Origin: Candidatus Poseidoniales archaeon
GTDB taxonomy: Archaea > Thermoplasmatota > Poseidoniia > Poseidoniales > Thalassarchaeaceae
DNA length: 64,000 nucleotides
Assembly (NCBI GenBank): GCA_012964335.1
Contig: DTUF01000024.1
Coordinates: 35,853-99,852 of the forward strand
Reading direction: 5' to 3'
Part shown: positions 27,001 through 62,831 of the stretch, in pieces
How positions within the stretch are numbered: the first letter of the stretch is position 1
How the letters are laid out: each line of letters opens with the position of its first letter
Program-made: the position numbers and the translations under genes
The notes under the pieces: generated by a model
Databases searched by the model: none
Told to the model about the DNA's origin: nothing
Seen by the model: the letters and a program-made list of their open reading frames with translations, nothing else

Positions 27001-30000
27001 TCAGCGGATGCTGGTTGGTGATGCAGTGTACTGCTTCAACATGTACGCAGCGCCACCAGGCAATTCGTACTGAATGTCAATTAATGCCGAGTCGATGAGA
27101 CCGTCATTGTCTGTCATTCTGATGAAGATTCTGTCACCAGGTCCGAAGGTTGTGATACAAGGTGAACCACCACGCTCACAGTGAGATATGTCATCCCAGA
27201 AGGTTACCATATTCTCGCTGTTACGAGGAGCGAATCCGTACACATTCTCTTCATCTCCACCACCAGGTGCAAGTGCAGTCTTGTACACTTGCTGTCCGCT
27301 AGCATTGGTCCACAATACAGAGACAGTCACTGCCTGTGTGGCTAAGTCTGTAGCTGCATATGATGTAGTAATTCTCCAGTGCCATTGGTCCTGTTGTAGT
27401 CCACTGATCTCTTGTACAGTAATTGATTCTGCTGAGAAGGTCAACCTTGGTGTGCCCTTGACACTGGTGTCTGCGAGTGAGCCTGCCCACACGTAGATTA
27501 CACCAGCCAAGACGACTGTGATTGCAACAAGAAGGATGGTTGCGATAACTGGGCTAACTGCACGGTCATCGTCAATCATTGATTCCTCCTCGAAATCTTC
27601 CTCGTCTTCTTCCGCTCGAGAGCGGCTGAGTAGAGCACCAACGAATACGCCGACTAAGCCGACTGCCATCAATGTTGGAGCGAACGAAGCAACAGCCTGT
27701 GCTGCCTTGGTCTCCACAATGAGTGGTAACTCGCTGTTGGTTCCTGAAGCAGTCATGTTATTGTCTGCCCAGTTCTTCTCTTCTAGAGCTGGCCTCTCGT
27801 ACTTCGAGTTGTCAGTGTATTGACCAGTGAATGGATTCACTGTCATTATGTCTACGAACACACGAACATCCTCAGATGTCTTGTTCATTCGGACGTAATT
27901 TCCAACCTCAACTGATCCACCGTAGTCAGGTAGTGATAATGCACCGTTTCCTGGACCATTGCTTCCAAGTCTTACACTGCTCTGGTATGTACCATCACAG
28001 CCTGCACAATCAGTGTCAACGATAAAGAATGACACTTGCAAATCGTAGAGATACTTGTATGTTCCATCTGAGTTGATTGGAGCATCTCCATCCATGTGCT
28101 GAAGGTTAACTGACACAGGTACCATAGTCTCGCGCAGAACACCGTCAATTCCCTTGAAGTCAAATGGATCAGGGGACAGACGTACTTCGTTGAAGTTGTA
28201 GTCTGGTCGCAATTCCACTAGGTTGTGGACATTGATGAGTATCTGATGTTCGCTGCTGGTCTGCGAGTAACAGTTAGTAGTTGCGTCACCATCAGTTGCA
28301 AGAACGTTACATGCATCTGACTGTACGTAATCGTACTGTGCTGGTATTACATCCTCAGGAGAATCCCAAAGAATCAAGTTCATCAAACAGTAGTCACCAG
28401 ATCTTGGTGCCTTCTGGTGAATTCCATCATCTGGTATTCCATCACCATCTGCATCCTGTAGCATATCCCACTCGCTGCTAGTTGCATCTGTGGTAGCATC
28501 AGGAATCAAATCGATTTCCATTGTGTGTGCTGCGTTGTCAATTGTTACTGAGAAATAGTTAGTGTATTGACACTTGTCAGTGTAGTACTGAGAGTTATCG
28601 ATTGTCCAATATAGTTGCTCATTGGTGTTATCGTTATCGCTCATCATGTCGGTCAAATCAATTGTTAGTAGGTCAGAATCTTCTGTGTCCTCATCTACAG
28701 ACCACCACCAAGAATCGCCCTCATTATTTGGAGCATTGGCAGTTGAACGGATTGTATCTGCTGTACCATCTTGGGCTAGAGTCTGGATGACTGAGCCGTT
28801 ATTTACATCCCATGGGATAATACGAGTATTATCGTTAGTTGGTTGTACTGTAAATGGTACGCTGATTGTTGCCGCAGCATCATTGATTGATGCACCGTCT
28901 GAAAGATCCAATACGATGTTACAGGTTCCACCATCTTCATTTGCCTCATTGAGGTCAATTTCTAGAGTGGTACCGCCGCTAATGCTTACAGTGAATGGTG
29001 TACAATCTATTGGGTCAGTAACTGCAGTCCATGTGTAGGATTGAGGTGCTTGCTCAGTGTTGTTGTCAGCATTCCTGTCTTGCTCATTAGCTAGACCGTC
29101 ACCGATTCCCAAATCTTGAACAAATCCTTCACCAGATGCGCCTCCCAAGAACTTGGTTAGCAAATCCCAGCCTCGCTCTTCACCGGTCACTGGATGTGGC
29201 CTCTGAGGTTCGTCGTAGTAGTTGTAGACCGCATTACCGTTAGCATCAATGCCTTCAGTAAATACTGGTAGACCTGCTGAGTGTCGTGGGTTGTTGATTA
29301 CTGGAGCGTCATTGACGTTCTCTACACCAACAAGCATTGACTGACTGCTGTACAAGCCGTGTCCATCTTTGACAACCAGGTATAGTCTCTGGTTACCAAA
29401 CTCATTCGCATCTGGAGTGATGGTCATTGTATGACCTGTCAAATCGTATGCGTATGGTGATGTTGCATTGCTTGGGTTTGTAGCATCGTTAGTTACAGTC
29501 CATGTCAATGTACTCGATGGTTGCTGATAATCTGCAGCCTTATCGGTCAAAGTCACGGTCTGTGAACCTGAATCTTCATCGTATGATACATCGACCAAGT
29601 CAGAAATGACTGGCTTTGCACGTAGGATGTCAATAGTGATATCCTGATTCTGATCCATTGCTAGTGAACTATGTGTTCCCCAGTCCCAATAGATGTTATC
29701 TGCATCTCTTACCTTAACAGTCACATCATATGCGCGAGGTGTTGTTGCGCCGGTTGCTGTGAATGTTCGGTGGATTAGCAAGTAATCGTCTAGAGTACCA
29801 TCAGCCAAATCGCCACCAGCCAATTGCAGTGTACCGAAGTCACCGAATGTCTGAGCAGCACCGCTTGTCTGGTTCCATAGCTGTGGTGGATAAACACCAA
29901 GCACGTGACCAGAGTTTTCGTTCTGGATGATTGCTAGAGTCTTGATTCGTCCTGTTGGGCTTCCAATACAGTCCCATGGGATTGCGAACTCAGAGATACC

Positions 30001-33000
30001 ACTCCATGTTGGAGTGACTCCTGGGTAACCAAATCCAGGTGCTGCTTGCATACCAGTACATGCTGCTGTAACATCGACCCAGTTGCCACCAGGCATAACC
30101 TTGCGGATACCCCAGTTTGCACGGTCTTCTGCCCATAGCATGAAGTCTGCCTCGAATGGCAGATTGTGACTGACATACCAGTTGTCACCAACGTTTGAAC
30201 CACCTTGCTGGGTATCAAGATACCACATACCGTCTGTGACCAAGAAGGTCACTCCAGTCAGCATGATGTACAGATTTGAGTTATCCCAAGTCATGTATCC
30301 CATTGCTTGGCTAGTCGGGTCAGGGTTGACCGCAACTGGACCAGGCATTGCATCGTCTGCAATGTTATAGCCTCCAAGTGGATGGCTTACGAACCAGTCA
30401 GTAACTGCCGCTGCACCACCTGCACCTTCTCCAACGGAGATGATGTTAGAGCGCCACGACGGGCTGACATATTCTGAACGACCAAGGTCGGTTGACTTAA
30501 TCATCAATCCAACGTTGCTTGCTGCTCCACCCATGTGTGTAACAGTTAGGTCAAGGAGGTTACCCTCGTGAATGACCGCACTAGTTCCAATGGTCAACAT
30601 ACTCTGGTTGAGTGTGTTACCAACACTGGTAATGGTTGAGTAAGCTCCAGCATTAATCTGGGTCATACCTGCACCGTGCATGGATCTCCATGGACCATTT
30701 GTTGTTGTGGTCATGTTCTCAATCGTACCTGATGCGCCACTTAGTGTCTTCAGAGTTGTAGTTGCAGTTGAGTCACCGCCATTCCATCGGAAATCATCGT
30801 GACCATCTACTAGCATACCAATGCCACCAGTTGTATCCATGTTTGCAACATCTAGTGTGTGGCGACCAGTGTCAGATGTAACATCCAAACCGATACCAAA
30901 TCCACTATCTGCAGAGACACTTAGACCGTCAACAGTTAGGTCAACATTGGTCAAGTCAAAGCCGTTGTCACCAGTGACAACTGCTCCACCCTCTACATTT
31001 AGAGAACCACCGTCTTGTCGGTATGCTAGGCTAAATCCGCCGATGGATGTACCATCAAGGGAGACGTCTTCGCTTCCGTCAAGGATGTCAATTCCGTATG
31101 TCTGTAAGTTGCTACCACCTGAACTTGCGGCTACATTGATTACACCACTCATGAAACTGTGGATAGTGCAATGATACTCGTAAGTACCTGCAGCTGTGAA
31201 CGTGTGGGCAAATGTTGAGCCCAAGTTCATTGGTCCACTGTTCCAAATTCCAGATGTGTTACTGGTTGTTGAATGCTGGTAGTTGTTGGGGTCGCTGTTG
31301 TATTGAGTCAATACCCATCGTACAGTATCACCTGTGCTGATGTTCTTGATTGTTGGATTATATTGCGACGCCTCAATGTTCACAGAGTGAATCTGTGATG
31401 CTGAACCACCTGCGCTGGCGAATGTGCTGCCAACATCAGATACATCACAACCATCTGACAATAGAGCGTTAGATGTTGTGCTGACATAGTTGCCTGACAT
31501 TGTGACTTCTGCAAGTCCACAGTTCTCTAGGTAGATACCTGTTGCAGTTGGTGAAACACGTCCACCAGATGCACTAATTGTGTTTCTTGAAATATCCACA
31601 TCAAATCCAGAGCGGACACCGTAAACGTTGATTCCGCCATCTGCATCAATCAGTGTGTTATCTGCAATTGAACCATGACCGTTTAGGACATAAATACCAG
31701 AGTGGGCTGAGTTTGCATCACCCTTGATTGTGTTGTTGTTGATATTCCACTGCTTAGCATTACGCATATAGATAGGTTCGTCAGTAGTCAATAGAGTGTT
31801 TCCACGAATCTCTACACTGTTCAGACGATTGTCTTGTGCGTAGATACCGTATTGTACTCTCTTAGAGCCTGTTACTGTGTTGTTATCAATAAGCAAGTCA
31901 TCTGCATCAGATTGTAGGTAAATCCAGATTGGTAGGTATGTGCTGTCATACATTGTGTTGTTACTCCAGTGTGCACCATCTGTTCCAGATCCACCATAGG
32001 CAGGGCTGGTTGCATAGTAGTTAATGTAAATCATGATTCCAACAGTACAGTCGTACATTGTGTTGTTATCAACAGTCCAGTCGCCAGGGTCAGTTCCAGC
32101 TGACTGGATACATATCTCTTCAGGATAGACCGATTGTACATCAGTTAACTGAGAGTATGACACTAACACGCTGTTAGTAACATGCATCACTGGGTCACGG
32201 TTGTAATAACCAGCACCACTTCCAACTGCACCAACGTTAATCAGCGTTGAATCATTCACATGGAAATTACCGTAACTGTATCCACCGTAATATCCTAGGT
32301 TGAAGAACGCCGTATCCTTTGGACTAATTGCTGCCCACGTCGTATCATCTAAGTAGATATCTCCGTCATAGTTTCTAACGTACAAATCAGACCATTCATC
32401 GTTGTAGAATCCACTGACAATAACTGTTGAACCATTGAATGATGCTCCAGTCGTACCAGTGTATGCCCAAGGCGAGTCTATCAGAATCGCTTTGTTCTTC
32501 ATGTCTGTTGGCATCGCACCCCAGTAACCATATTCGGTAATCGTACCTCCGGCACCATCACCGTTCAATTTGGTTCTAGAACTTGCAGTTGCAATATAGT
32601 TAGCACCAGCACAGGATGCCAGTACACTGTAATAAGTTGATTCCCAACTATAACATATACGAGCATCAAACCGATCCGTCAGTGCAACCGTATCAGAGTT
32701 ACCTGGTCCATCGACCAAACTCACCCCTTTGACTGCATATCTAAAGTCTGCAACACGTGTACTCATTGAGCCAGTGGTGTCGTACTGTACTTTAGCAACA
32801 GTCATTATTTGGAATCCTGCTAAATTCACCACTGTCCATCCCGAAGAATCAACATAATTGGTGTGGAACAACATATCGTTCACCGTTCCCGCGCTGTCAG
32901 TTTCACCTGAGCCCACGCGTCTACTATTGGCATCAATCATGCTCACGCCTGTTCCAGCGACACCATTACCATCTGCTTCAATAGTCACGTCCAGCAACCT

Positions 33001-36000
33001 TGCTCTTTGCAAGAGTCCTGAACCCGTCGCTACCACCGTGGCTAGATCAATATCTCCTTCAATCCAAGTAACCAAACCTGAAGTCGCAACATCGACTGTA
33101 TTACTACCAGTAGTACAATCAGTACAGGTAAGTTCTCCTGAACCGTCGTGATTGATAGCAATATTATTGCTTGTCAATGCTAGGTTATTGAAGGCCCAGT
33201 CCTTGGTACTAGTTGGTAGAACATTGATTGCAGCTCCTGCAGCATTGGTGATTGTACCACTTAGGGCCATCTTAATTCCAGATCCTAGGACTATTCCGTC
33301 TTGGGATTGGTTGTCTAGATTGGTGTTAGTCAACTCTAATGAGCCAATGGCTGCAGCTGTCATGCGAACACCATAGCGACCGTTGTTGACTGTTAAGCCA
33401 TCCAATTCAACAGATGAACTGCCTGTAACCAATACACCCTCATCTACTGGGTCATTGACTACAACAGTGTCAATAACACCAGCAGCATAGTTTCCAGAAA
33501 TGTGGAGACCTGTATCTGATCCATCAATCACACCATTTGCTAGTGAAGCAGTTCCAAATTCTCTACCCCAGTTTGCATCCATCAATTCATTGATAGTATT
33601 GCCACCACGGAATACGAAGTCATATCGGTCACCGTAGTAATCAGCGTAGTTGTGTAGAATATCGATGTATGCTGATACATCAGTTACACTTGGACTACTG
33701 ACATCAACAATTGGCCAGTGCATTTGCCAGCCGTTTGGTGTAGGTGTCTGGTAACGGTATGCATATGAAAGACATATGTTGTAGTTACCCCAAAGACCGT
33801 TGTAGCCCTCTGGAGGCTTGAAGATACCCTGTCCGCCATGGTATTGGGTGTAGTAGTAACCCCAGTACTCGTACGGGTAGTAGTTCTGTGAACCTGTCAG
33901 ACCCTCTGCCTTTTCAATTGTGAAACCGAAGTCGCTTGGGTATGAGTTAGCACCGTAGTATTGACCTGAACTAGTGTAAGGTCCGTAGTTGTTCATGTAG
34001 TAGTAGTAACCATACTGATACGAACCACCTGGGCTGTATTGGTAACCGTAGAGGTTACAGTCGTAACGAGCCCATCCATCGTTTCTTGATGGGTGGTCTG
34101 GATTGTTCCTGTCCCCAAGGTTTGAAGTAATACCTGAATGGTAATATCCAGTCATTAATTTACCTGCAGCATCTACAGTGAAATTCTCAATCTCATCTCC
34201 AATACCGTTTGCATCGTTATCAATTCCATCATTGAGTCCAATACGCATTCGGTCGTGGATTGCGAAGTAACGGCTTGTGTAATAGTTGTACGTTGGGTGA
34301 ACGTTTCCGCCCATGTAGACGTTATTGAAACCGAATTGGATGTAATTGTAATTACTTGCCAATCCAGTCAAATCAATGTCGTAAGTTTCCCAACCACGTG
34401 CGTGACCTGATAGTAGAGTTGAGCGGTAGATACTTGGTAGTGTCATTCCGCCATCAATTTCTACTCCAACTGTGTTATCGTTGAGGGTGAAGCCATCAAT
34501 TGCTGGGGCTGCATCCTTGATCATTACGCCAGTAGCTGCTCCAGATACACCGATGTTCTGAATGACGCTGGTTCCGGAATCTTCTATCCAAACACCAACA
34601 CCAGTCTGCTGTGCATTGTATATACTCGCATCGTTAACTAACAGTGTTCCACCGCTAACCTTGATGGTTGCCATAGACGCAGAGGTCGTTTGACTACCGT
34701 AAACTATGGCACCATTCTTCAACTCAAGAGTTCCATCACCGACATTCAGCGCCCCTCCAGTATTGGAGTTCTGATGCATATCACGGATAGCCCCATTATC
34801 TACAACGAAAGTACCGCCGTCTTGGATTTCCATTTCCCAGCCGTAAGCGCTGGTCACTGCCTTCATGTTACCAACTTCGCCACCACCTTCGGAGAGCAGA
34901 ATTTCGCCTCCGTTCTGGATAGTGATTGTTGGGTTGTTGTTAGCTGTGCGGTTAATCATTATCTTTGTTCCATTCAAGTGCAACTTGCACCCGTCAATAA
35001 CTAAGTCAGTTGATAGAGTAATGATTTGCATTGTGTATAGATAGTAGCCGTTGGTCATAGATGTGTTTGAATTCAAGAATCCACAATTCTTAGTTGCGCC
35101 ATTCCAATCTTGTGGGAACGCTTCTAACTTAATGTAGACTTGATCACCTGGACTTAGCGGCATGGAACAATCCATGCTGTTAATCATACATGATCCTGTA
35201 TACCATGCGTCTGCTGGTCCTGTCTCGTTCTGACCTGCACCGCCAGCAATGGCGATTCGATGGTCTGTGTACGAGGCAGTAACAGTGGTTGATCCACTAA
35301 CCTTCTCTAACTTATCTTGAAGCAACCAAACAGTTGCGTTTCCAGTACTATCGGTTTTAGCTGCGCCAACTGATGTGATATCAGAAACTACACAAGCAGC
35401 ACCTGGGCATGTACCCGAAGTGCTTACTGTAGTTGTAGTAACTGAATGGTCAGCAACAAATACTGGCACGAAGTTCATTACACGGTATGCTGCAACTTGA
35501 GCAGTACCACCGACATACAATGCACCTGAGGATGATGAAACATCAACCCAACAGTCAGACATTCCTGTCCAACCAGCTGCATTAGCACAATCGTTGCCTC
35601 TCCATGAGACTCCGATTAATCTAACATCACCGTTGGTGCTTGCTTGCGCCACATACGCGCCCATAGATGTTTGACCGGTTATTGCCACATCTGCGACTGT
35701 AACCTTTGCATTACGAGCATAAACGATGTTTCCGTTAGTGGAACTACCGTCCATTGAACCACCTGCTACGGTCAATGTGCTTGAAGCACTGCTTGAAGTA
35801 CACGAAGCAGTTGCCCATACACCGTTGGTTGAATCACCAAGGTCAGCGTCATCAGCTCGGACATTCCAACCGCATCCAGCGATTGAAATACCATCAGCGG
35901 CTAGATTTGTGAGCATCACTAAGTCACCGGTTGCTGCAGTTCCATCCATGCGGAGATATCCATCTAAGTCTACATTATCCATTGAACCTGGAGTAGTCCT

Positions 36001-39000
36001 TGACATCACCATATTACCAGTGCTGGTAATTCCGCTAGCGGACCAACCTGAGTCACCAAGAACAGTACCTGCGGTACCTCCTGGAGCCAACGAGATTGAA
36101 CCACCACTAATATCGGTTAATGACATACTATCTGTAGCATATGATACGATAGCATTTGCATATCCTGCTGCATTAATATTGTTAGCAAACAAACTTGTTC
36201 CAGAAGTTGCTAGTGAGGTTTGGCTGATACCAGACCCACCTACTTGTGTGCTTGATAGCCCACTTGTCGACATACTAACGTTGCTAGCATGTATCGAAGT
36301 AGCATCACCCATGACAGCGTTGTGTGCTGAATCTGTAATAGTTAGATTCTCTAGGTAAATATTGCTTCCGTCACCGGTCTTGATGGCACCTTCAGTAGAT
36401 GAACTACCCATGTTACAGTTCGTTGCCGAACCTTCTAACCATGTTAATCCGGAGTCATCAGGCAAGTCGATACAAGAGTTAGTTGCATTGGTTATTGAAA
36501 CTCCAGAGAGATCAAAACCAGTACCTGTTCCTGAACCGTGCTTGATTGCAGTACCAACATCGGTAAATGTGACTGTGTCAAAGGTAAAGTTACCTACATT
36601 TCCGTTGTGGTGAGGTGCACTTCCGTGACGGCTACCTGCACTGATTGCAACATCTAAGTTGCTGAAGTCAGTGTTGTTGAACATATGCCTGTCATCAGTG
36701 TCTGAACAACCGCTTGTGAATGCAATACCCTTGCCGTTTCCGTTACCAAGGTTGGTAAATGATACTGGGTGAGTTGCATTTCCTTGAGTTGTCAAGCGAG
36801 AACATGTCCCTGCCATATCTATTCCTTTGCCGGGTGCGAATTGAACTTCAACACCAGCATCAATCACTAGATTTGCTGTTACACGTAGGTAATCACCACT
36901 TGGCACAACACGAATCGGACTCATTTCTATATCCCATATTGTGTCTTCAGTAATGTCCGCGTAAACATCCATACCAGCACCATCGAATGGCACTGTCTTT
37001 GTACGGATACTGCATTCGTTGGTTCCGCTGTTGTAGCAGTAGTATGCACCATAGTAACCAAACCAAGGTGTAAGTTGTGCGTTGCGGATGTATGAAGCAG
37101 AGCTCGGCATTTCAGGCCAATAGCCACCCCAACCATAGTACGCCATCTGCATCGGTGTTGTTGATGTAGATGTGCTGAAAGCAGCTCCGCCGTGGCGGAT
37201 TACGTGCATCTTGTGACTACTGTTACCACTGTAAGTAGTACCGAAGTAATCAATGTCAAATCCTGCTGGGATGTCAATAACATCTCCACACTGATTTCGG
37301 TAGTTATACCAATATCGCGTGCAGTAGTATGTGTATGGGTTTCCATTGGATGTACCGGTGAAGACTTCATCGTAGTTGTACAATTCAGTCATTCCTACTG
37401 GCATCCTCTCGTTTGCATGGTTGTTACCATCTGTTGCAATTCGGTAGTTGTAATCATATGGGTTTGCACCAGCAAGATAACCAGGGCCTCTCTCTCTTAG
37501 AGATGCACCAATGGCTGTTGAACCACCCTTTTGATAGCCGATATTCTCGTAATCATAGTAAGCAGATGAGCCGGTATCGTAATGATACTCGATTTCATTG
37601 GTCACATCGTACATCTTAATTTGATAAGAGCACTTGTATTGTTGACCAAATCCGCAATTCATGTCATGCCATTCAACAGTAAATACCTTGGTTGGCGTTC
37701 CAATGTGATAACTCACAGCAGTGGCGTTGTTCCAGTTGTTGTTGTTGTCCTGTGCGTGAATACTGTATTCAACAGTGTTCCCACGGTCTGTACCTGGAAT
37801 GTTAGCCGACCAATCACAAGGAATCAATTCGCACTGAGCGCGAGTCTTGCCTGCTTGCTGAGACATTGCTCGAGTAATCCAATTACCCCAAGACTGGCTA
37901 GTATCATTGTACACACGGTATTCAAGATGTGGTCCCTCAAGGACCCCATTCCCATCTACACCAGTTGAAACATTCACGCCTGTTGGAGGGTCTCCAGCAT
38001 CTGTTATTTTTACTGTCACTGTCCTGTCATCCTGACTGTGAGTGTCCATCAATCCTGTGTGATCAAAGGTTGGTGGATAGATATCAGGCATTGGCCTAAC
38101 TGGGCTTACCTTTTGCATGATTTGACTGTTTGCAGACCAACGTCCATCGTAACCTGGAGCCATCCAACCGTTGAATTGTCGGTCGTAATTGTAGGTACTG
38201 TATGAGTAGAGGCAGTAAGGATTACTGCTGCTGCTGCTCAAGAAGTACAGAGGATGGTTGTTACTGTTAACACAGAAATGGTTTCTTGTGGTCCTACTTG
38301 ATGTGTAAGATGCGTTTACACTCAATGTACCGAACTTCATGGTGATGTCACCAGGAATTGGTACTGCTGAGTAACAGTCATCGCAATTGCGACCACCGCC
38401 TTGAGTACCTACTGGTGCGCTTGCAACAGGCTGATCGATTCCAGTTTCATCATCTAATCCTACCATTGTGAAAGCACCAAACGCTGTATTGTACCACCAA
38501 ATAGTGGACATACCTGGGCCGTTTTGACCATTCAGTGTTAATCCCTGATCTTTTGGATTTGTAACTACACAGGTTGCAGACTGAGCACAATTTGCGTAAG
38601 AGTATCCACTAATAGTTGGGCTGTATCTCATCTGGTACGCTGCATTAATGTTGAAGCACTGGTTATTACCAGAGCCACACGAGGAAGTATCATACTCCCA
38701 AATGTATTCTTGTGTATCTTCGTAGTATGTAAGTTGCTCATCCATGTATCGATAAACCGAATAGTATCGGAAATTGGTTAATGCGTCAATCTTTAGTTGC
38801 CACTTGTTGTTACCAGTTCCATCACTATTGAAAACATCTGCATCCTCATCTGGTTGCACGAAGTAGTTGTAAGGAGAACTTGGAGCAGTTACACTGCTTG
38901 GGGTACCAGTTCCTCCTATGGGCAACGTCTTGAAGTTGGGATTACCGGTTGATCCGGGAATTGAACCTTTCAAGTCCTGGAATGCCCAGAAATACTCAAC

Positions 39001-40926
39001 ATATTCGCCTTCCTGAACCGCAGGTATTACGGCTCGGAAATTACACCAGTATCCAGCAACACATGTGCCCAAAGTGGTCGCATGTACGTTGGTCCAACTA
39101 CCGTTGTCAACACTGTAACTTAGTGATGGACCACCACTAGATGTAGTGTCAACACCAGTTACGTCCTTGAGTTGGAGCCAGAAGGTTCTCTGCTCCGCAC
39201 GGTGAGTTATTAGGTCAGTGTAAGGCACAAATGTGTCCTCTGGAGGTGCGGTATCAGAACCGCCACTGTAGTCCAGATGCAAATGTGGGTACTTGGCAGC
39301 ACTTGTGCAACCATAGTAACTGTAGTAGCCAGAACCACACCAATACCAGAACGGTGCGTTAGCGGTATTTCTCAGACCAAGTCCAAGAATGTTTCCGCTT
39401 GAACCTGCTCCATTACCGTCAACTGCGTCTTGTACGTCATCGATTCCATTTTGATTCATACCAATGGTTCGTACGTTACCGCCATTCCAATAGTAACCTG
39501 GGTCACTTAATGACGTAGACGAAGACGACGCTGCGCTGTTCCTAATATAGCGATTCAAATTTCTACCACTACTGTATAGATAGCTACTCGGGTCAATCAC
39601 GTTGCTCGTTTGACTAGAGCCAGACTTCAGTACAGCAACTTCGAAATTACGTGCCCCGCTTTGGTACCTGCCAACGCTAGATTTGAAATCTACACTGTTA
39701 ACAGTCGCACCAGTTGGTAACGCACTATTGAAGTCAAAGCGGTACCAAGCGTATCGGTAGTACCATGTGTAACTACCCGATGTACAGGTGTTAGCGGCAG
39801 ACCCTGAACCTCTGCAAGTGTAAAGCAATGAAGAGCTAGAGAATGCGTATTCATATGTGGATGTGTACCAACCCCATCGAGTGATGCGGTAGTAGTACGC
39901 ATATCCAGTACGCTGAACACCCTTGTCCATAGTTGGATCAATAGCAATTGGGAACGAGCGGTTATCACTGTCCATCAGCCATGTGTTCTCAACAACTGTT
40001 GTCAGAGTAACTTCCTCTCCCCGAACCGTAATCAGGTACTCGCCGATGTGAGGGCCTTCATCTGTAGGCTCAATACTTTCAACGAGAGGTGGCGGGATTT
40101 TTACCAATTCCTCACCTGTTGCCAAATTGCGGATACTGAGGGATTGGTTAGTCTTCACCAATTCTCCATCTGCAATAGGCGACTCACCTAGGAAGATAGC
40201 ATATCCGGGTGGCAGAATCATTGTTTCTGCAATACCGAAGTATCCTGACTCCTTCTGGTGGTCAAGTAGCATTGGTGCTTCTCGGATGACAAGGTTCTGC
40301 TTCAACTGGGTTGAAGTTACCTTGTAATCAAGCGAAATGCCGGTCATCATAGGATACCTAATCACATTTCCACCAATATCAATAGGCTCACTGCTAGGCT
40401 TTGCCATGTAAGGTTCTGGAGATAGCGTGTTGCCATCTAGAACCACTACTTGTGGCATAATACCATAGCGAATGGTTTGCCCATTAACTACCATTTGGAC
40501 ACCCTGACGAGCATCGTTTCCGAAGTAGGTTTCGTATGTGTTCTGTGTTACACTCCATCCTCCTTCATTGGACTCGATTGTCAAGTCTATCTCTTCCCAG
40601 GCACCATTGTCCAAGTAATGGACTGGCACTGGAGAGACAATAACTTCGAAATCACCATTTTCCTTCAAGAAGGTCTTGGCGGTTTCGGTACGGGAACCGA
40701 TTAGCTCGGCACCTGCGTCATATCCAAATTCATCATTATCTGCCGGATTCATTGCTTCATCCGGTAGAGTCAGCAGGTCATCAATAGACTCTGCCCCATC
40801 GTTTTCAGAAGTCTGTAATTTCTCCGTTACCGGCGAAACCGCAGCGCTCCAACTCATTCCAATCATCAGGAGAGTTAGCAAAAGCCAACTGCCCCCAAAG
40901 GTCACTTTATTTTTGTTTGTCACCAT
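27001..40926 (-). CDS. Giant (4641 aa) cell-surface protein with C-terminal internal class III signal peptide and archaeal type IV pilin-like domain
   Basis: Uninterrupted 13.9-kb ORF; N-terminal signal peptide; beta-helix-like, cupredoxin, DOMON-like and cadherin/Ig-like (NVNDAP) segments; TM, acidic loop, then DRA|VSPVIATILLVAITVVLAGVIYVW. Confidence 0.88.
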   Translation of the reverse strand: MVTNKNKVTFGGSWLLLTLLMIGMSWSAAVSPVTEKLQTSENDGAESIDDLLTLPDEAMNPADNDEFGYDAGAELIGSRTETAKTFLKENGDFEVIVSPVPVHYLDNGAWEEIDLTIESNEGGWSVTQNTYETYFGNDARQGVQMVVNGQTIRYGIMPQVVVLDGNTLSPEPYMAKPSSEPIDIGGNVIRYPMMTGISLDYKVTSTQLKQNLVIREAPMLLDHQKESGYFGIAETMILPPGYAIFLGESPIADGELVKTNQSLSIRNLATGEELVKIPPPLVESIEPTDEGPHIGEYLITVRGEEVTLTTVVENTWLMDSDNRSFPIAIDPTMDKGVQRTGYAYYYRITRWGWYTSTYEYAFSSSSLLYTCRGSGSAANTCTSGSYTWYYRYAWYRFDFNSALPTGATVNSVDFKSSVGRYQSGARNFEVAVLKSGSSQTSNVIDPSSYLYSSGRNLNRYIRNSAASSSSTSLSDPGYYWNGGNVRTIGMNQNGIDDVQDAVDGNGAGSSGNILGLGLRNTANAPFWYWCGSGYYSYYGCTSAAKYPHLHLDYSGGSDTAPPEDTFVPYTDLITHRAEQRTFWLQLKDVTGVDTTSSGGPSLSYSVDNGSWTNVHATTLGTCVAGYWCNFRAVIPAVQEGEYVEYFWAFQDLKGSIPGSTGNPNFKTLPIGGTGTPSSVTAPSSPYNYFVQPDEDADVFNSDGTGNNKWQLKIDALTNFRYYSVYRYMDEQLTYYEDTQEYIWEYDTSSCGSGNNQCFNINAAYQMRYSPTISGYSYANCAQSATCVVTNPKDQGLTLNGQNGPGMSTIWWYNTAFGAFTMVGLDDETGIDQPVASAPVGTQGGGRNCDDCYSAVPIPGDITMKFGTLSVNASYTSSRTTRNHFCVNSNNHPLYFLSSSSSNPYCLYSYSTYNYDRQFNGWMAPGYDGRWSANSQIMQKVSPVRPMPDIYPPTFDHTGLMDTHSQDDRTVTVKITDAGDPPTGVNVSTGVDGNGVLEGPHLEYRVYNDTSQSWGNWITRAMSQQAGKTRAQCELIPCDWSANIPGTDRGNTVEYSIHAQDNNNNWNNATAVSYHIGTPTKVFTVEWHDMNCGFGQQYKCSYQIKMYDVTNEIEYHYDTGSSAYYDYENIGYQKGGSTAIGASLRERGPGYLAGANPYDYNYRIATDGNNHANERMPVGMTELYNYDEVFTGTSNGNPYTYYCTRYWYNYRNQCGDVIDIPAGFDIDYFGTTYSGNSSHKMHVIRHGGAAFSTSTSTTPMQMAYYGWGGYWPEMPSSASYIRNAQLTPWFGYYGAYYCYNSGTNECSIRTKTVPFDGAGMDVYADITEDTIWDIEMSPIRVVPSGDYLRVTANLVIDAGVEVQFAPGKGIDMAGTCSRLTTQGNATHPVSFTNLGNGNGKGIAFTSGCSDTDDRHMFNNTDFSNLDVAISAGSRHGSAPHHNGNVGNFTFDTVTFTDVGTAIKHGSGTGTGFDLSGVSITNATNSCIDLPDDSGLTWLEGSATNCNMGSSSTEGAIKTGDGSNIYLENLTITDSAHNAVMGDATSIHASNVSMSTSGLSSTQVGGSGISQTSLATSGTSLFANNINAAGYANAIVSYATDSMSLTDISGGSISLAPGGTAGTVLGDSGWSASGITSTGNMVMSRTTPGSMDNVDLDGYLRMDGTAATGDLVMLTNLAADGISIAGCGWNVRADDADLGDSTNGVWATASCTSSSASSTLTVAGGSMDGSSTNGNIVYARNAKVTVADVAITGQTSMGAYVAQASTNGDVRLIGVSWRGNDCANAAGWTGMSDCWVDVSSSSGALYVGGTAQVAAYRVMNFVPVFVADHSVTTTTVSTSGTCPGAACVVSDITSVGAAKTDSTGNATVWLLQDKLEKVSGSTTVTASYTDHRIAIAGGAGQNETGPADAWYTGSCMINSMDCSMPLSPGDQVYIKLEAFPQDWNGATKNCGFLNSNTSMTNGYYLYTMQIITLSTDLVIDGCKLHLNGTKIMINRTANNNPTITIQNGGEILLSEGGGEVGNMKAVTSAYGWEMEIQDGGTFVVDNGAIRDMHQNSNTGGALNVGDGTLELKNGAIVYGSQTTSASMATIKVSGGTLLVNDASIYNAQQTGVGVWIEDSGTSVIQNIGVSGAATGVMIKDAAPAIDGFTLNDNTVGVEIDGGMTLPSIYRSTLLSGHARGWETYDIDLTGLASNYNYIQFGFNNVYMGGNVHPTYNYYTSRYFAIHDRMRIGLNDGIDNDANGIGDEIENFTVDAAGKLMTGYYHSGITSNLGDRNNPDHPSRNDGWARYDCNLYGYQYSPGGSYQYGYYYYMNNYGPYTSSGQYYGANSYPSDFGFTIEKAEGLTGSQNYYPYEYWGYYYTQYHGGQGIFKPPEGYNGLWGNYNICLSYAYRYQTPTPNGWQMHWPIVDVSSPSVTDVSAYIDILHNYADYYGDRYDFVFRGGNTINELMDANWGREFGTASLANGVIDGSDTGLHISGNYAAGVIDTVVVNDPVDEGVLVTGSSSVELDGLTVNNGRYGVRMTAAAIGSLELTNTNLDNQSQDGIVLGSGIKMALSGTITNAAGAAINVLPTSTKDWAFNNLALTSNNIAINHDGSGELTCTDCTTGSNTVDVATSGLVTWIEGDIDLATVVATGSGLLQRARLLDVTIEADGNGVAGTGVSMIDANSRRVGSGETDSAGTVNDMLFHTNYVDSSGWTVVNLAGFQIMTVAKVQYDTTGSMSTRVADFRYAVKGVSLVDGPGNSDTVALTDRFDARICYSWESTYYSVLASCAGANYIATASSRTKLNGDGAGGTITEYGYWGAMPTDMKNKAILIDSPWAYTGTTGASFNGSTVIVSGFYNDEWSDLYVRNYDGDIYLDDTTWAAISPKDTAFFNLGYYGGYSYGNFHVNDSTLINVGAVGSGAGYYNRDPVMHVTNSVLVSYSQLTDVQSVYPEEICIQSAGTDPGDWTVDNNTMYDCTVGIMIYINYYATSPAYGGSGTDGAHWSNNTMYDSTYLPIWIYLQSDADDLLIDNNTVTGSKRVQYGIYAQDNRLNSVEIRGNTLLTTDEPIYMRNAKQWNINNNTIKGDANSAHSGIYVLNGHGSIADNTLIDADGGINVYGVRSGFDVDISRNTISASGGRVSPTATGIYLENCGLAEVTMSGNYVSTTSNALLSDGCDVSDVGSTFASAGGSASQIHSVNIEASQYNPTIKNISTGDTVRWVLTQYNSDPNNYQHSTTSNTSGIWNSGPMNLGSTFAHTFTAAGTYEYHCTIHSFMSGVINVAASSGGSNLQTYGIDILDGSEDVSLDGTSIGGFSLAYRQDGGSLNVEGGAVVTGDNGFDLTNVDLTVDGLSVSADSGFGIGLDVTSDTGRHTLDVANMDTTGGIGMLVDGHDDFRWNGGDSTATTTLKTLSGASGTIENMTTTTNGPWRSMHGAGMTQINAGAYSTITSVGNTLNQSMLTIGTSAVIHEGNLLDLTVTHMGGAASNVGLMIKSTDLGRSEYVSPSWRSNIISVGEGAGGAAAVTDWFVSHPLGGYNIADDAMPGPVAVNPDPTSQAMGYMTWDNSNLYIMLTGVTFLVTDGMWYLDTQQGGSNVGDNWYVSHNLPFEADFMLWAEDRANWGIRKVMPGGNWVDVTAACTGMQAAPGFGYPGVTPTWSGISEFAIPWDCIGSPTGRIKTLAIIQNENSGHVLGVYPPQLWNQTSGAAQTFGDFGTLQLAGGDLADGTLDDYLLIHRTFTATGATTPRAYDVTVKVRDADNIYWDWGTHSSLAMDQNQDITIDILRAKPVISDLVDVSYDEDSGSQTVTLTDKAADYQQPSSTLTWTVTNDATNPSNATSPYAYDLTGHTMTITPDANEFGNQRLYLVVKDGHGLYSSQSMLVGVENVNDAPVINNPRHSAGLPVFTEGIDANGNAVYNYYDEPQRPHPVTGEERGWDLLTKFLGGASGEGFVQDLGIGDGLANEQDRNADNNTEQAPQSYTWTAVTDPIDCTPFTVSISGGTTLEIDLNEANEDGGTCNIVLDLSDGASINDAAATISVPFTVQPTNDNTRIIPWDVNNGSVIQTLAQDGTADTIRSTANAPNNEGDSWWWSVDEDTEDSDLLTIDLTDMMSDNDNTNEQLYWTIDNSQYYTDKCQYTNYFSVTIDNAAHTMEIDLIPDATTDATSSEWDMLQDADGDGIPDDGIHQKAPRSGDYCLMNLILWDSPEDVIPAQYDYVQSDACNVLATDGDATTNCYSQTSSEHQILINVHNLVELRPDYNFNEVRLSPDPFDFKGIDGVLRETMVPVSVNLQHMDGDAPINSDGTYKYLYDLQVSFFIVDTDCAGCDGTYQSSVRLGSNGPGNGALSLPDYGGSVEVGNYVRMNKTSEDVRVFVDIMTVNPFTGQYTDNSKYERPALEEKNWADNNMTASGTNSELPLIVETKAAQAVASFAPTLMAVGLVGVFVGALLSRSRAEEDEEDFEEESMIDDDRAVSPVIATILLVAITVVLAGVIYVWAGSLADTSVKGTPRLTFSAESITVQEISGLQQDQWHWRITTSYAATDLATQAVTVSVLWTNASGQQVYKTALAPGGGDEENVYGFAPRNSENMVTFWDDISHCERGGSPCITTFGPGDRIFIRMTDNDGLIDSALIDIQYELPGGAAYMLKQYTASPTSIR

Positions 40927-41400: not shown

Positions 41401-44400
41401 TCAGTAGTCAAACTCGTCGGAATCGCCTTCTTCGCCACCGCGAGTTAGGATGAATGCTCCTGCGATAACTGCCACTAGGACAAGTATGCCGATTGCAATC
41501 CAAGCTTGGGTTGGGATTTCTCCGTCTCCACCTTCAACACCGATGGTGTCGTCAACATTCACGCCTGGTCCAGTGTCATCGGTAAATCTCAAACCTGCAC
41601 TGGACTCAGCTGTCTCCATATTACCAACTGAATCAACTGCTGCTACTGAGTAGTAGAATACACCAGAACCTGAGTGCCTGTTCATTGTAACATCCATGCT
41701 AGAATCAGCAGTGGTGTGACAGTTGCCTGCAGTAATTAGGCTAGAAACCTCAAGCGAGGTGTGTTGTGCTGGTGACCAGCAAATTAGCCAGTGATTGACA
41801 TCAGACGAATCAGCGGAAGTCCATGTGAAGTGAATGCTTGATTCACCAGAACTTGTAGCATCAAGGTCAGTAGCTCCTGCTGTTGGATCAACTTGGCCAT
41901 CTGCAGTTGCACTTCCTGAATCAACAGGTGTACCATACAGAGAGTTACCATCAGTTCCAACCTCACCGTTCTCTACACGCACGAGGAACTCGTATGTTGT
42001 ACCATGTGTCCCAGTAATTGTGTGAGTTGTTGTAGTCAAGTCAAAGGTACTGCGTGTACCGTCAAGGGCTGCTCCACCACCATTGACATACAAAACACCG
42101 TAATCGTTTGAACTAGTTAATTGTGAGTTGTTAATTGCCCATGAAAGGTCAATTACACCAGCGGAACCAAGCGTTGCTGTTAAGGAATCAATACCAATCT
42201 GTGGTGGTTGTCCAATAGTAGCGGATGCGAATACTGCGTATGTAGATGATGAGCGAGATGGTAGAGAACCATCATTGCTCCATGACAGACTAATTGTGTC
42301 TGCATCAACCTGAGCTTGTGTAGTACCTGGCATCTCAACCCATCCACCGATACCCTGATACCAAAGGGAATGGCCAACTGACGGGTCAGCGTCTAAAGTC
42401 ACAGTCAAGTCTTCACTGTTCACATCTGATGGTGCAAGTACTGCACTCACATCAATGTCAAATTCGCAGACTGAATCCCAACCTGGGCTACCACTTAGCG
42501 TCTGGTCTGTTACAGCATCAGCATCTGAGAATTGTGCAGTGAACTGCTGAGTTCCAGCATACAGAATAGCGTAATCTACACTCCAGCAATCTCCAGAAAC
42601 AACATTGGAATAGTTATTCCAAACACTGAAAGTGATCTGTGCCGATGCATCGGCACCCCAGTAATCGTATACTGTAACAATCATTGTTGGGGAACCAAAC
42701 CACATGGGATTCATGTCAACTGTACAATCAGGACTTCCGCCCATAATACTGCCTGTCATTGGATCTTCCATACCACTACAAATATCCAACTGTGGGTCCT
42801 GTTCAGAACCAGACACCATTGACCATGTGTACCCAAATGGTTCTTGGTTACCGTCTAGGTCTAAGTCAGGCTGGCTAAGATGTTCTGCACGAGCAGAGAA
42901 AGTGATGCGGGTGCCAGTAACAATGTCACCCTCAATTTCATCCATCGTCAAGTAAGCCGATGGACCCATGTTAAGAACTTCAAAGTGACTAGTACGCATA
43001 TCGTTGGCTGAGTTCATGTCGATCTTACAATCGGGGTTGGTACCTGTTCCGCAATCATTAGCGGGGTCGGTGTCAGTTAGCGTTGCGTCAAGTAAATCGA
43101 TTGTCGCACTCACTGTAAACATGCCTGGGTTAATCATTATCTCGGCGCAAGCAGTTGCTTCAAGAGTAGCCGGGAACATTTCTCCCAAGTACTCGTGCGA
43201 GGTAGATCCTTCTGGATCATCTGGGTTGTCACAATCGTTTGCCATAATAGGTGAACCCATGACATCATCACCATTAGAATCCTTTACATTGAACATAACT
43301 GCCCAATCATAATCGATTGTTCGGTCACTACCACTGTGAGCAACGGTTGCAAAAACCCGAGTCATTCCAGCATCCAATCGGCCGCTTTCTTGACGAGGGT
43401 TGCCTGCTTCAACATTGACAACTTGTGCATCGTGATAGGAGGTAAAGGTTGCAGTTAGCAACGCATCATTGTTTCCGTTTCTATCGTCAAGAGTACGGAC
43501 GACCTCTTCCATAGTATCGGTTGGAGGGCCTGGTGGGTGAGTACCTGATTGGTCGGGTGTTGATACAAATTCATACATAGTGTACTGAGTAAGAGACGAC
43601 TGGACTGTGAATATTCCTACGCCATTTGCGTTAGCCGAATCTCCTTGGATAGAACCTGCAAAGGTGTAATTTGTTGCTTGGAATTCAGCAACTTGGCGGG
43701 TTTCACCAATGTCACTTGCATTCATATGAGTTGGTGGTTCCATTGAAAGGTTGCTGAATACTTCAATGTCATTTGTTTGGCCAGCGCCAAACAAATCACC
43801 AAAGCTTACTGTCCATGTACATGTACTAGCACCTGGTCCATTGGGACAGTCTTCGTACGAACCATCACCATCTGAATCAAACATTGATACAGCGTTAGTG
43901 TTCCCCATACCATCTTCCATGTATGCTTGGAATAATCCACTAAAAGTTACGTCCATCTCAACGTCACGAGGATCCCAATCAGCACTACCATCGACAAATG
44001 CTGTCATGGTAAATAGATGTGGACCCGCGCCAGACATTGGGTCATCCCCATTATCCCAAGTAAGTTCTGTTGAGATATCATACCAATCCACTACATCAAC
44101 ATCATAATCTAGAATGTTATTGTTCAAATTGGTGTCTTGATCAAGAGAATCAACCTCGATATGAATTGTATACATACCTGGTGCTGGTGGTGTCCAAACT
44201 AAGTCTGCCCCAGTTGAATCCCGAACAATATAATGGCCGTTAGCCAAATAATCGCCAGCAGTAAAAGTTTGGATACCACAAGAAATTGTGTCATCACAAA
44301 CCGCAGCGTCTTCGGCATCAACAATCAACAAAGAGGAGTCACTCTTAGGAGCAACAGTTACAGTCACTGTCAATTCTGATATATCGTTGTCACCATCGTT

Positions 44401-44637
44401 CTTGATGACGAGGTCAAATAATACAGCCTCGCCAGCGTCAACGGAATTTCTCACGTTGCCGGTCATATCAGTCGTTGATTCACGAGGTGAATTCGCACCC
44501 ATCAACCAAACCTCATAATCGGCTCGGCCATTGGTGTCATCCACCTGTTCTCTCTCATTCATTTCAATTGGGCTTAGGCTTGCTACGATGCTCATTAACA
44601 TCAGCAGTGCTAAAACCAAACTTGTTGCTCTCTTCAT
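41401..44637 (-). CDS. Secreted, C-terminally anchored acidic surface protein (Ig/CARDB/FN3-like repeats)
   Basis: Signal peptide MKRATSLVLALLMLMSIVAS; CARDB-like D.NLNNN motifs; FN3-like LSW..Y.F.V and YYSVAAVDSVGN; C-terminal TM plus TRGGEEGDSDEFDY; GGAGG SD-like motif upstream. Confidence 0.8.
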   Translation of the reverse strand: MKRATSLVLALLMLMSIVASLSPIEMNEREQVDDTNGRADYEVWLMGANSPRESTTDMTGNVRNSVDAGEAVLFDLVIKNDGDNDISELTVTVTVAPKSDSSLLIVDAEDAAVCDDTISCGIQTFTAGDYLANGHYIVRDSTGADLVWTPPAPGMYTIHIEVDSLDQDTNLNNNILDYDVDVVDWYDISTELTWDNGDDPMSGAGPHLFTMTAFVDGSADWDPRDVEMDVTFSGLFQAYMEDGMGNTNAVSMFDSDGDGSYEDCPNGPGASTCTWTVSFGDLFGAGQTNDIEVFSNLSMEPPTHMNASDIGETRQVAEFQATNYTFAGSIQGDSANANGVGIFTVQSSLTQYTMYEFVSTPDQSGTHPPGPPTDTMEEVVRTLDDRNGNNDALLTATFTSYHDAQVVNVEAGNPRQESGRLDAGMTRVFATVAHSGSDRTIDYDWAVMFNVKDSNGDDVMGSPIMANDCDNPDDPEGSTSHEYLGEMFPATLEATACAEIMINPGMFTVSATIDLLDATLTDTDPANDCGTGTNPDCKIDMNSANDMRTSHFEVLNMGPSAYLTMDEIEGDIVTGTRITFSARAEHLSQPDLDLDGNQEPFGYTWSMVSGSEQDPQLDICSGMEDPMTGSIMGGSPDCTVDMNPMWFGSPTMIVTVYDYWGADASAQITFSVWNNYSNVVSGDCWSVDYAILYAGTQQFTAQFSDADAVTDQTLSGSPGWDSVCEFDIDVSAVLAPSDVNSEDLTVTLDADPSVGHSLWYQGIGGWVEMPGTTQAQVDADTISLSWSNDGSLPSRSSSTYAVFASATIGQPPQIGIDSLTATLGSAGVIDLSWAINNSQLTSSNDYGVLYVNGGGAALDGTRSTFDLTTTTHTITGTHGTTYEFLVRVENGEVGTDGNSLYGTPVDSGSATADGQVDPTAGATDLDATSSGESSIHFTWTSADSSDVNHWLICWSPAQHTSLEVSSLITAGNCHTTADSSMDVTMNRHSGSGVFYYSVAAVDSVGNMETAESSAGLRFTDDTGPGVNVDDTIGVEGGDGEIPTQAWIAIGILVLVAVIAGAFILTRGGEEGDSDEFDY

Positions 44638-44763
44638 GTCACAGTCCTCCCACTAAGGGATTGCCCCACCTATTCAATCCATATTTATACTATGCGCGGG
44701 TCTTTGTTAGGTAATTCAGTTGTAAACGCACAATCGTATTGTTTTTGGTGCATAATTTTTGTA

Positions 44764-49524: not shown

Positions 49525-50238
49525 TTATTCTTCTTCAGAGTTTCCAATTTCCACGAGCCTCTCATCACTCGTAATCAAGCCATCTTGAATTGTCACAAGC
49601 CTAGTACACCGACGTGCAACATCCTCCTCATGAGTGACGATGACGAATGTAATCCCCTTCTCCCTATTCAGATTAACAAGTAAATCCATCACAGAATCTG
49701 AAGTTGTTGTATCTAGGTTTCCAGTTGGCTCATCTGCTAAAATTAACGCTGGTTGATGAGCAAAGGCACGGGCAATTGTTACTCGTTGTTGTTGCCCACC
49801 AGATAATTCCGCAGGCAAATGGCCTGCCCATTCTTTTAGATTAACTGCATCTAACGCCTCTAAAGCAATGGCTCTTGCATCCTTGCTTGATTTTCCTTTC
49901 AAAATAAGTGGTAATTCAACGTTCTCAACAGCAGAAAGAACTGGAATCAAATTGAAAGACTGAAACACAAATCCAAGGCGGTTCTTGCGCATGTTAGTTC
50001 GCTCCCTATCAGACATTTCAGAGAGAGGTTGACCATCTACCAAGACTTCACCAGCTGTGAACTCATCAAGACTTGAAACGCAATTTAGAAATGTGGTTTT
50101 ACCACAGCCAGATGGCCCCATTATGGCAACCATCTCTCCTTCTGCAATCTCCAAGTCAACTCCCTTGAGAGCCTTCACCTTAACTGAACCTGTATCATAG
50201 ACCTTCCACAATTGTTGTGCTTGAAGTACTGTGGTCAT
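49525..50238 (-). CDS. ABC transporter ATP-binding protein (LolD/MacB-like)
   Basis: GPSGCGKTT, GFVFQSFNLIP, LSGGQQQRV, ILADEPTGNLD, VTHE; abuts the permease gene. Confidence 0.95.
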   Translation of the reverse strand: MTTVLQAQQLWKVYDTGSVKVKALKGVDLEIAEGEMVAIMGPSGCGKTTFLNCVSSLDEFTAGEVLVDGQPLSEMSDRERTNMRKNRLGFVFQSFNLIPVLSAVENVELPLILKGKSSKDARAIALEALDAVNLKEWAGHLPAELSGGQQQRVTIARAFAHQPALILADEPTGNLDTTTSDSVMDLLVNLNREKGITFVIVTHEEDVARRCTRLVTIQDGLITSDERLVEIGNSEEE

Positions 50239-50292
50239 GTAGTATCGGGTGGGTTGCACACCTATAATACAGGCAGGACCACAGATGAAAAC

Positions 50293-56287: not shown

Positions 56288-56291
56288 AGAA

Positions 56292-57065: not shown

Positions 57066-57071
57066 GACTCA

Positions 57072-61428: not shown

Positions 61429-61482
61429 GGGTACACCCGATTGAAATCAGTCATATCATATCTCCTTACAATCTCAAATAAT

Positions 61483-62772: not shown

Positions 62773-62831
62773 GAACGGCCTACGGCCGTTGCGACCATAA
62801 TGTTTTGATGTGCCGTCAACTGCCAATTCTG

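Follow-up and report, generated by a model that had tools for sequence, protein, structure and literature searches.

A beta-sandwich domain common to a giant surface protein and a GH57 amylopullulanase-type enzyme in a Poseidoniales genome

By fold, the closest described relatives of the domain examined here are carbohydrate-binding modules (CBMs) and DOMON-like domains. Family CBM74 is described from starch-granule-degrading bacteria, and the module has ca. 300–357 residues, with extra loops, protruding hairpins and a third sheet; in Sas6 from Ruminococcus bromii (7UWU/7UWV/7UWW), an extended groove with W373, F326 and H289 binds long alpha-glucan. Family CBM9, represented by CBM9-2 of Xyn10A from Thermotoga maritima (1I82) and by a module from Caldicellulosiruptor (7NWN), holds its ligand in a two-tryptophan clamp and binds the reducing ends of cello- and xylo-oligomers. 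Other relatives are Glucodextran_C (PF09985, the 'glucodextranase DOMON-like domain', 1UG9/1ULV), the heme subunits of DOMON type (2IVF_C, NxrC 7B04 and the cytochrome domain of cellobiose dehydrogenase) and BACUNI_03838 (4JPQ), an uncharacterised, putative carbohydrate-binding protein from Bacteroides uniformis. Here we analyse a stretch of 64,000 nucleotides (hereafter the window) of contig DTUF01000024.1, from a Candidatus Poseidoniales archaeon (assembly GCA_012964335.1), in which a domain of this kind is predicted in two different proteins. One is a giant surface protein of 4641 aa (the giant; positions 27001–40926, minus strand), recognised from the list of open reading frames (ORFs), its translation and Pfam and NCBIfam matches; the other is an amylopullulanase-type enzyme of glycoside hydrolase family 57 (GH57), the 5′ part of whose gene occupies positions 62805–64000 (plus strand) and which continues beyond the window end.

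Homology and predicted fold of the shared domain

The giant carries its copy at 29737–30429 (minus strand; residues ca. 3500–3730) and the GH57 enzyme at 62904–63479 (plus strand; residues 34–225, directly after the signal peptide). A first-pass annotation of this DNA had singled out the conserved core of the giant's copy (29845–30300, minus strand) and had proposed, from six colinear motif pairs, that it is shared with the enzyme's N-terminus. An exact string search located the six pairs, in colinear order, from MTWDNSNLY (30294–30268) to AAQTF (29859–29845) on the minus strand in the giant and from MTWNDTHLF (63000–63026) to GAETF (63411–63425) on the plus strand in the GH57 gene. With the 398-aa GH57 fragment as query and the 4641-aa giant as subject, BLASTP aligned residues 54–226 of the former with 3533–3730 of the latter at 29% identity over 207 columns (55.5 bits, E=1e-11), the second-best alignment scoring 22.3 bits (E=0.29). 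A shuffling test agreed: the Smith-Waterman score of 154 compares with 36.8±6.4 for shuffled sequences (z=18), and was reached by none of 1000 shuffles per partner (0 of 2000 in total), whose maxima were 69 and 71. The identity between the two copies is 24–34%. Because a profile of the two window copies, searched against 1.84 billion proteins as cluster representatives at 50% identity, pulls out 115 clusters at E≤1e-3 (50 at E≤1e-10 and six at E≤1e-30), we interpret the similarity as homology and not chance; the proposal that giant and enzyme share a domain thus holds, with homologous copies that have the same strand order in the models. The 'IDGDLSEW' start pattern, which the annotation had likened to DOMON/CBM9-like sugar-binding sandwiches, is present in the GH57 copy (62925–62948) and does not extend to the giant, where a degenerate 'AAAVTDW' is followed by an 18-residue insertion. 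A scan of the window's own genome (8538 six-frame ORFs of at least 60 aa from the 1.97-Mb assembly) revealed only these two copies and one weak match (C12:30941–31366, E=0.036), which was disregarded. In a genome search with profile A2, the enzyme copy matched at E=2.0e-80 and the giant copy at E=1.1e-51.

The AlphaFold model of the enzyme copy, from a 35-row alignment, reached a predicted local distance difference test (pLDDT) score of 92.7 and a predicted template modelling (pTM) score of 0.91, and that of the giant copy, with the same strand order, reached 77.3 and 0.79. The top Foldseek matches of the enzyme copy were CBM74 of R. bromii Sas6 (E=6e-5), CBM9, 4JPQ and glucodextranase, and the gamma subunit of ethylbenzene dehydrogenase and the cytochrome domain of cellobiose dehydrogenase were also found. 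With VIA-align, the enzyme and giant copies scored 11.2 and 9.9 against 4JPQ, 10.2–10.9 and 7.6–8.1 against CBM9, 10.2 and 8.9 against 2IVF_C, and 8.7 and 7.8 against 7B04 (NxrC), over an immunoglobulin-like background of at most 8.0 and 6.9, respectively; glucodextranase scored 10.6 with the enzyme copy and was not listed for that of the giant. The earlier description of the domain as a DOMON/CBM9-like sandwich is therefore correct at the level of fold. As modelled, the shared segment is a two-sheet beta-sandwich of ca. 190 residues with a CBM9/CBM74/DOMON-like fold, and it belongs to an uncurated family.

CBM74 is the best structural match of both copies and has the core beta-sandwich in common with them, but it is a much longer module, with 178 aligned residues of the shared domain spanning residues 252–572 of the Sas6 chain, and structural identity is 13–15%. 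There is no detectable sequence similarity either: a search of the PDB, Sas6 included, with profiles A2 and A4 gave no matches at E≤10. Moreover, whereas CBM74 is described from starch-granule-degrading bacteria, the family described here includes marine archaea. CBM9 also has the fold in common, but the Pfam model CBM9_1 (PF06452) matched neither window copy at E≤10 and only one of the 35 family members scanned, faintly (E=0.0045); the shared domain has conserved aromatics, as read from its sequence, and the carbohydrate-active partners found for its family are all alpha-glucan modules, in contrast to the cello- and xylo-oligomers bound by CBM9. The heme subunits of DOMON type likewise have the fold in common, yet the family shows no sign of a heme site and its members are mostly hydrolases and adhesin-like proteins. 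For 4JPQ, structural identity is 8–10% and there is no sequence match. Glucodextran_C is related at the level of fold, but profile-profile comparison reveals no relationship to the shared family (hhalign probability 0.2%), and Pfam places PF09985 in the enzyme solely at residues 1054–1287.

Immediately before Glucodextran_C, residues 835–1053 of the enzyme (L001:3160–3816, plus strand, outside the window) contain a second, very diverged copy of the domain. Comparison of the family with this middle region (residues ca. 877–1020) by hhalign gave a probability of 94.9% (E=4.5e-8, 117 columns), the controls being Glucodextran_C, as above, and fn3 (0.4%). The family profile also matches the middle region weakly in two relatives, G040 and G036 (E=4.4e-7 and 5.2e-4), and pairwise comparison of the 'IDG..GEW' region of the window's enzyme with the two copies was not significant (z 1.5–1.9, BLASTP E≥0.09). 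The GH57 enzyme thus has two family members plus the fold-related Glucodextran_C.

The sequence family and its two branches

No Pfam model matches either copy at E≤10, and a search of NCBIfam at E≤1 with the giant copy alone and with both full-length proteins found nothing over either copy. A match to DUF1194 (E=0.14) was taken as noise. In language-model space, both copies lie near unnamed clusters, along with a few of Glucodextran_C and one that is partly CBM9_1. The accessible text of the literature on GH57 enzymes, adhesins and large proteins of Poseidoniales or Marine Group II (MG-II), including PMC6864105, PMC4660358 and PMC6461757, contains no description of the domain or of the giant. 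These comparisons indicate that the fold is known and that the sequence family is new relative to Pfam, NCBIfam and the PDB, so that, on its modelled structure, it may represent a new CBM family close to CBM74. The first-pass annotation had considered the module lineage-specific. However, the source names for ten representatives include Thermoplasmata archaea (four), Hymenobacter aerilatus (a protein of the type IX secretion system, T9SS) and Bacteroidales, and some of the 115 clusters have T9SS sorting domains; since the family occurs in both Thermoplasmata and Bacteroidota, it is not lineage-specific.

Domain context was surveyed with Pfam in all 56 family matches of at least 400 aa; the 59 shorter matches are mostly fragments, and 27 of them were scanned with Pfam as part of alignment A2 (35 rows). 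Ten of the 56 proteins have alpha-glucan modules: GH57 in seven, mostly with Glucodextran_C and with the shared domain N-terminal in six, as in the window's enzyme; a GH13 alpha-amylase in two giant proteins, one of which also has CBM20; and CBM20/21/53 alone in one. No glycoside-hydrolase catalytic family other than GH57 and GH13 was found in the 56 proteins. Further partners are LTD, in some cases with DUF11 and an Exo_endo_phos nuclease (five proteins, plus the two with GH13), Pilin_N (six, of which five are orthologues of the giant or fragments of them), T9SS sorting tails (four), NosD/beta-helix (three), pyrroloquinoline quinone (PQQ) propellers (two) and phosphoesterases (two), while several proteins have only Big_7 or Ig-like domains and eight have no Pfam match. 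Three individual architectures deserve mention. P0060 (1788 aa) has an N-terminal shared domain, GH57 and Glucodextran_C followed by a full C-terminal solute-binding protein of the ATP-binding cassette (ABC) type (SBP_bac_1/8, E about 1e-36), a fusion that joins the enzyme to a receptor for the uptake of its products. P0025 (4125 aa) and P0045 (3469 aa), with one to three shared domains, a GH13 catalytic domain, LTD and fn3, and in P0045 also CBM20, are putative giant surface amylases.

The relationship of the copies was examined in a quickly built maximum-likelihood tree, whose 73 domain instances are the two window copies and 71 others with a domain E<1e-8 that span 140 or more profile positions. 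The copy from the giant fell in a clade of eight rows, with a support of 99 in the Shimodaira-Hasegawa-like approximate likelihood ratio test (SH-aLRT), in which all rows with a recognisable context are orthologues of the giant or C-terminal fragments, with cupredoxin and/or Pilin_N. The enzyme copy fell in a separate clade of seven rows (support 100), nested in a larger, poorly resolved group that holds most of the N-terminal GH57 copies. Because the two window copies are in different clades and are not nearest relatives, they are old paralogues, and not the result of a recent domain swap within the genome.

Residue conservation was compared between 65 enzyme-type and 28 giant-type sequences from Poseidoniales loci. 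In the numbering of the enzyme copy, both types keep W15, T34, D57, Y61, G68, H79, L81-P82, A85, W107, E128, P132, G137, Q149, P161 and F174, although position 79, a histidine across types, is a glutamine in the window's enzyme copy; of the core residues, W15, W35, Y61, G68, W75, L81-P82-F83, W107, E128 and P132 are present in both window copies. The enzyme type has in addition invariant W44, W49, W121, W150, W157 and F160. The last triad, W150/W157/F160, is present in 100% of the 65 enzyme-type sequences, whereas these positions are not conserved in the 28 of giant type, where N (21%), S (25%) and H (54%), respectively, occur most often; the giant of the window has N, L and Y there. Invariant residues specific to the giant type are N27 and M33-P34-G35 inside the insertion, and H93 and E152 are also 100% conserved in its 28 sequences, so that invariant His and Met are present in this branch. 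In the wider family, the triad occurs in seven of the eight rows with a GH57 context.

Within Poseidoniales, a single-sequence search, which reaches close relatives, identified 73 loci closely related to the enzyme domain (51–97% identity) on contigs of Poseidoniales type; two of them (L040 and L043) are labelled as bacterial and look like binning errors. Among 41 genomes (the 40 nearest relatives and the window's own), the family was found in 37, usually as one copy in an ORF of ca. 1500 aa and another in an ORF of ca. 4500–4700 aa. In the orthologues of the giant, across both Poseidoniales families, the domain is single-copy and lies between the cupredoxin and the C-terminal anchor. We then tallied by hand two tables from 121 genomes sampled evenly across the order, taken to be the same sample from their identical genus denominators, leaving out of the giant-type count matches solely in GH57-type ORFs of ca. 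1500 aa or in short fragments (G024, G025, G060, G073 and G100). A giant-type copy was found in 60 of the 121 genomes, of which 33 had GH57 and 27 did not, 20 of these 27 being at least 90% complete; of the 61 genomes in which no giant-type copy was found, 20 had GH57 and 41 did not. In the giant-bearing genomes G026, G028, G029, G031 and G032, which are 93–97% complete, GH57, GH13 and GH77 were each found in none of the five. These tallies show independence of the giant and GH57 genes, and are not statistics, because the genomes are incomplete metagenome-assembled genomes that are related to one another. In genus g7, the same hand tally gave 14 genomes with the giant copy and six with GH57, without overlap, a pattern that may stem from subclades or from divergence of the giant beyond the cut-off of E≤1e-10.

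Host proteins and neighbouring genes

The complete GH57 ORF has 1532 aa (L001:658–5256). In its longest form, from a TTG at 62805, it overlaps the start of the divergent GH77 ORF (61483–62850, minus strand); the start is more likely the ATG at 62832, which is followed by a typical signal peptide, MKRHSALISLLLVMTPLLGIISSA (62832–62903, plus strand), predicted by reading the translation. After the signal peptide come the shared domain (34–225), the GH57 catalytic domain (244–717), the middle region, Glucodextran_C (1054–1287), fn3 and Ig-like domains and a C-terminal hydrophobic or transmembrane (TM) helix, the latter read from the sequence. Within the window, the catalytic domain starts at 63534 and runs to the end (63534–64000, plus strand; PF03065). 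The Pfam matches were strong for both Glyco_hydro_57 (PF03065, E=6e-48) and Glucodextran_C (PF09985, E=9e-53), and no classical starch-binding CBM was found by Pfam in the 1532 aa. This architecture is that of an archaeal amylopullulanase-type GH57 enzyme, predicted to be a large, secreted and anchored protein, of putative specificity.

The GH57 gene adjoins a locus for alpha-glucan uptake and breakdown (52440–62850), identified by a Pfam scan of the window ORFs, with genes for a solute-binding protein/permease fusion, a permease, an ABC ATPase, a GH13 enzyme with a CBM48-type module, a phosphorylase-like protein and a GH77 4-alpha-glucanotransferase. At the head of the locus, a single 869-aa ORF (52440–55049, plus strand) combines an extracellular solute-binding protein with an ABC permease domain. 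The GH13 alpha-amylase (57072–59804, plus strand), whose CBM48-type module is N-terminal, ends in a Cys-rich stretch (residues 834–869) that matches Pacifastin_I (E=4.9e-8) and VWC (E=7e-5), which is odd for an archaeal enzyme.

The giant starts with an N-terminal hydrophobic signal and contains a cupredoxin (residues 3184–3265), the shared domain, a tandem-95 repeat (3815–3880), a TM helix (4415–4433), an acidic loop and an archaeal Pilin_N segment (4455–4501). The cupredoxin (31132–31377, minus strand), ca. 235 residues upstream of the shared domain, is of amicyanin/plastocyanin type, with a C-x2-H-x2-M motif (YEYHCTIHSFM, 31150–31182); it is kept in the orthologues of the giant. Residues 4415–4501 (27424–27684, minus strand) comprise the TM helix, the acidic loop of 21 residues and a segment like a type IV pilin or class III signal, RAVSPVIATILLV, which matches Pilin_N in Pfam (E=3.6e-9) and arch_flag_Nterm in NCBIfam (E=6.5e-12) and is followed by a tail of ca. 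160 residues. The same TM/loop/Pilin_N layout is found in the orthologues P0003, P0020, P0006, P0033 and P0038. An internal prepilin-like signal near the end of a 4600-aa protein is unusual; it might serve as a hairpin anchor or mark a site of processing. Upstream of the giant gene and on the same strand are genes for a 1078-aa protein with no Pfam match (41401–44637), a 1586-aa permease of MacB/FtsX type (44764–49524) and an ABC ATPase (49525–50259), which together (41401–50259, minus strand) may form an export or processing system for the giant.

Possible roles of the two copies

On balance, the enzyme copy probably binds alpha-glucan, capturing polymeric substrate for the GH57 domain. We favour this reading because the copy is the first module after the signal peptide and the farthest from the anchor, because its closest structural relative binds starch, and because the carbohydrate-active enzyme (CAZyme) and CBM partners of its family are all alpha-glucan modules. 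With no classical starch-binding CBM in the enzyme, substrate targeting would have to come from modules like the shared domain. The copy would thus be the outermost module of a surface enzyme anchored by its C-terminus, and would hold polymeric starch or glycogen near the GH57 catalytic domain, as CBM74 does for amylases. The abundance of GH57 and GH77 transcripts in deep-sea MG-II, reported in PMC4660358, is counted as support for this role. The giant's copy, in turn, would be a diverged paralogue in the distal ectodomain of an adhesin-like protein; most likely, it either recognises a different glycan, on a surface or on particles, in the manner of a lectin, or only builds stalk, and we infer that it has no functional tie to the alpha-glucan enzymes.

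The first-pass annotation had instead suggested that the domain links the adhesin to alpha-glucan particle binding, or to a surface scaffold for the enzymes. In the strongest form of the former idea, both copies bind alpha-glucan and the giant fastens the cell to particles of starch or glycogen for degradation by the enzymes encoded nearby. Several observations fit it: CBM74, which binds starch, is the top structural match for each copy; no CAZyme partners other than alpha-glucan modules were found for the family; and both copies keep W15, W35, Y61, W75, H79 (Q79 in the window's enzyme), F83 and W107, which are conserved throughout the family. Furthermore, in G000, G006, G022, G036 and G041 the giant gene lies on the same contig as the GH57 gene and its alpha-glucan locus, 15–33 kb away, an arrangement for which a functional link and inherited gene order are equally good explanations. 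Nevertheless, we do not find the link supported, because the triad is missing from the giant copy and the giant persists without GH57: its branch is a separate clade, GH57 was not found in 27 of 60 giant-bearing genomes, with five near-complete ones lacking GH13 and GH77 as well, and the two sets of genomes do not overlap in g7. A common tether to alpha-glucan is thus unlikely, and the same comparative evidence speaks against a surface scaffold for them. A more general docking role, in which both proteins are positioned through binding of the domain to a common envelope partner (a protein or glycan of the S-layer, for example) or through its self-association, would fit the occurrence of the family in many unrelated secreted and surface proteins (nucleases, beta-helix proteins, T9SS cargo), and Pfam calls the fold-related Glucodextran_C an 'SLH-like binding module'. 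However, both window proteins have, as read from their sequences, membrane anchors of their own, the domain is at the end of the enzyme farthest from its anchor, and the copies are just 24–34% identical and in different clades, so that we hold docking to be very unlikely.

Giant surface proteins are largely made of structural repeats, and the giant's copy might be one more of them, an inert spacer formed by another stalk beta-sandwich without ligand. The giant branch has, indeed, few conserved surface-type aromatics beyond those common to the family. Against this, the domain is single-copy and at a fixed position across both Poseidoniales families, and several of its residues are completely conserved in the 28 giant-type sequences (those of the insertion, H93 and E152); fixed position and invariant residues suggest selection beyond bulk, and a mere spacer seems quite unlikely. 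The invariant His and Met of this branch and the nearby cupredoxin bring to mind a redox DOMON that would bind heme or another cofactor and work with the cupredoxin in extracellular electron transfer, but this is the most improbable of the explanations considered here.

Several points weigh against the binding roles that we favour for the two copies. Alpha-glucan partners are absent from the majority of family members (46 of 56), which are associated instead with LTD and nucleases, NosD/beta-helix, phosphoesterases, PQQ or T9SS domains, and therefore the ligand could be generic or absent. The proteins that carry the W150/W157/F160 triad also include some with no alpha-glucan module, among them P0034 (NosD) and P0004 (Big_7). 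The fold occurs as well in heme subunits that are not lectins (ethylbenzene dehydrogenase gamma, NxrC), with Z values similar to those for CBM9, and the model of the giant copy is moderately confident, its 40 N-terminal residues and one loop being below pLDDT 60. A shared fold does not show function.

Poseidoniales (MG-II) are, according to PMC6461757, the most abundant planktonic archaea in the surface ocean and are uncultured, and how they find and hold polymeric food has been deduced from genomes alone. The structural assignment yields two short expressible constructs, the first module of a surface GH57 enzyme and a conserved module of the giant. If the enzyme-type branch does bind alpha-glucan, it would represent a new CBM family structurally closest to CBM74, a family that itself attracts interest for the breakdown of resistant starch. 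However, it would be wrong to take the shared domain as evidence that the giant is a starch adhesin. A more ambitious proposal, which we put forward tentatively and consider rather doubtful as a whole, is that the family is a new CBM family, a compact (ca. 190-residue) relative of the starch-granule-binding CBM74, in which the triad-marked branch directs GH57 and GH13 enzymes of archaea and bacteria to polymeric alpha-glucan and the giant branch is the ligand-recognising lectin head of a surface protein of ca. 4600 residues that is conserved throughout MG-II. If true, this would offer a first concrete clue as to what it is that these abundant, uncultured plankton adhere to.

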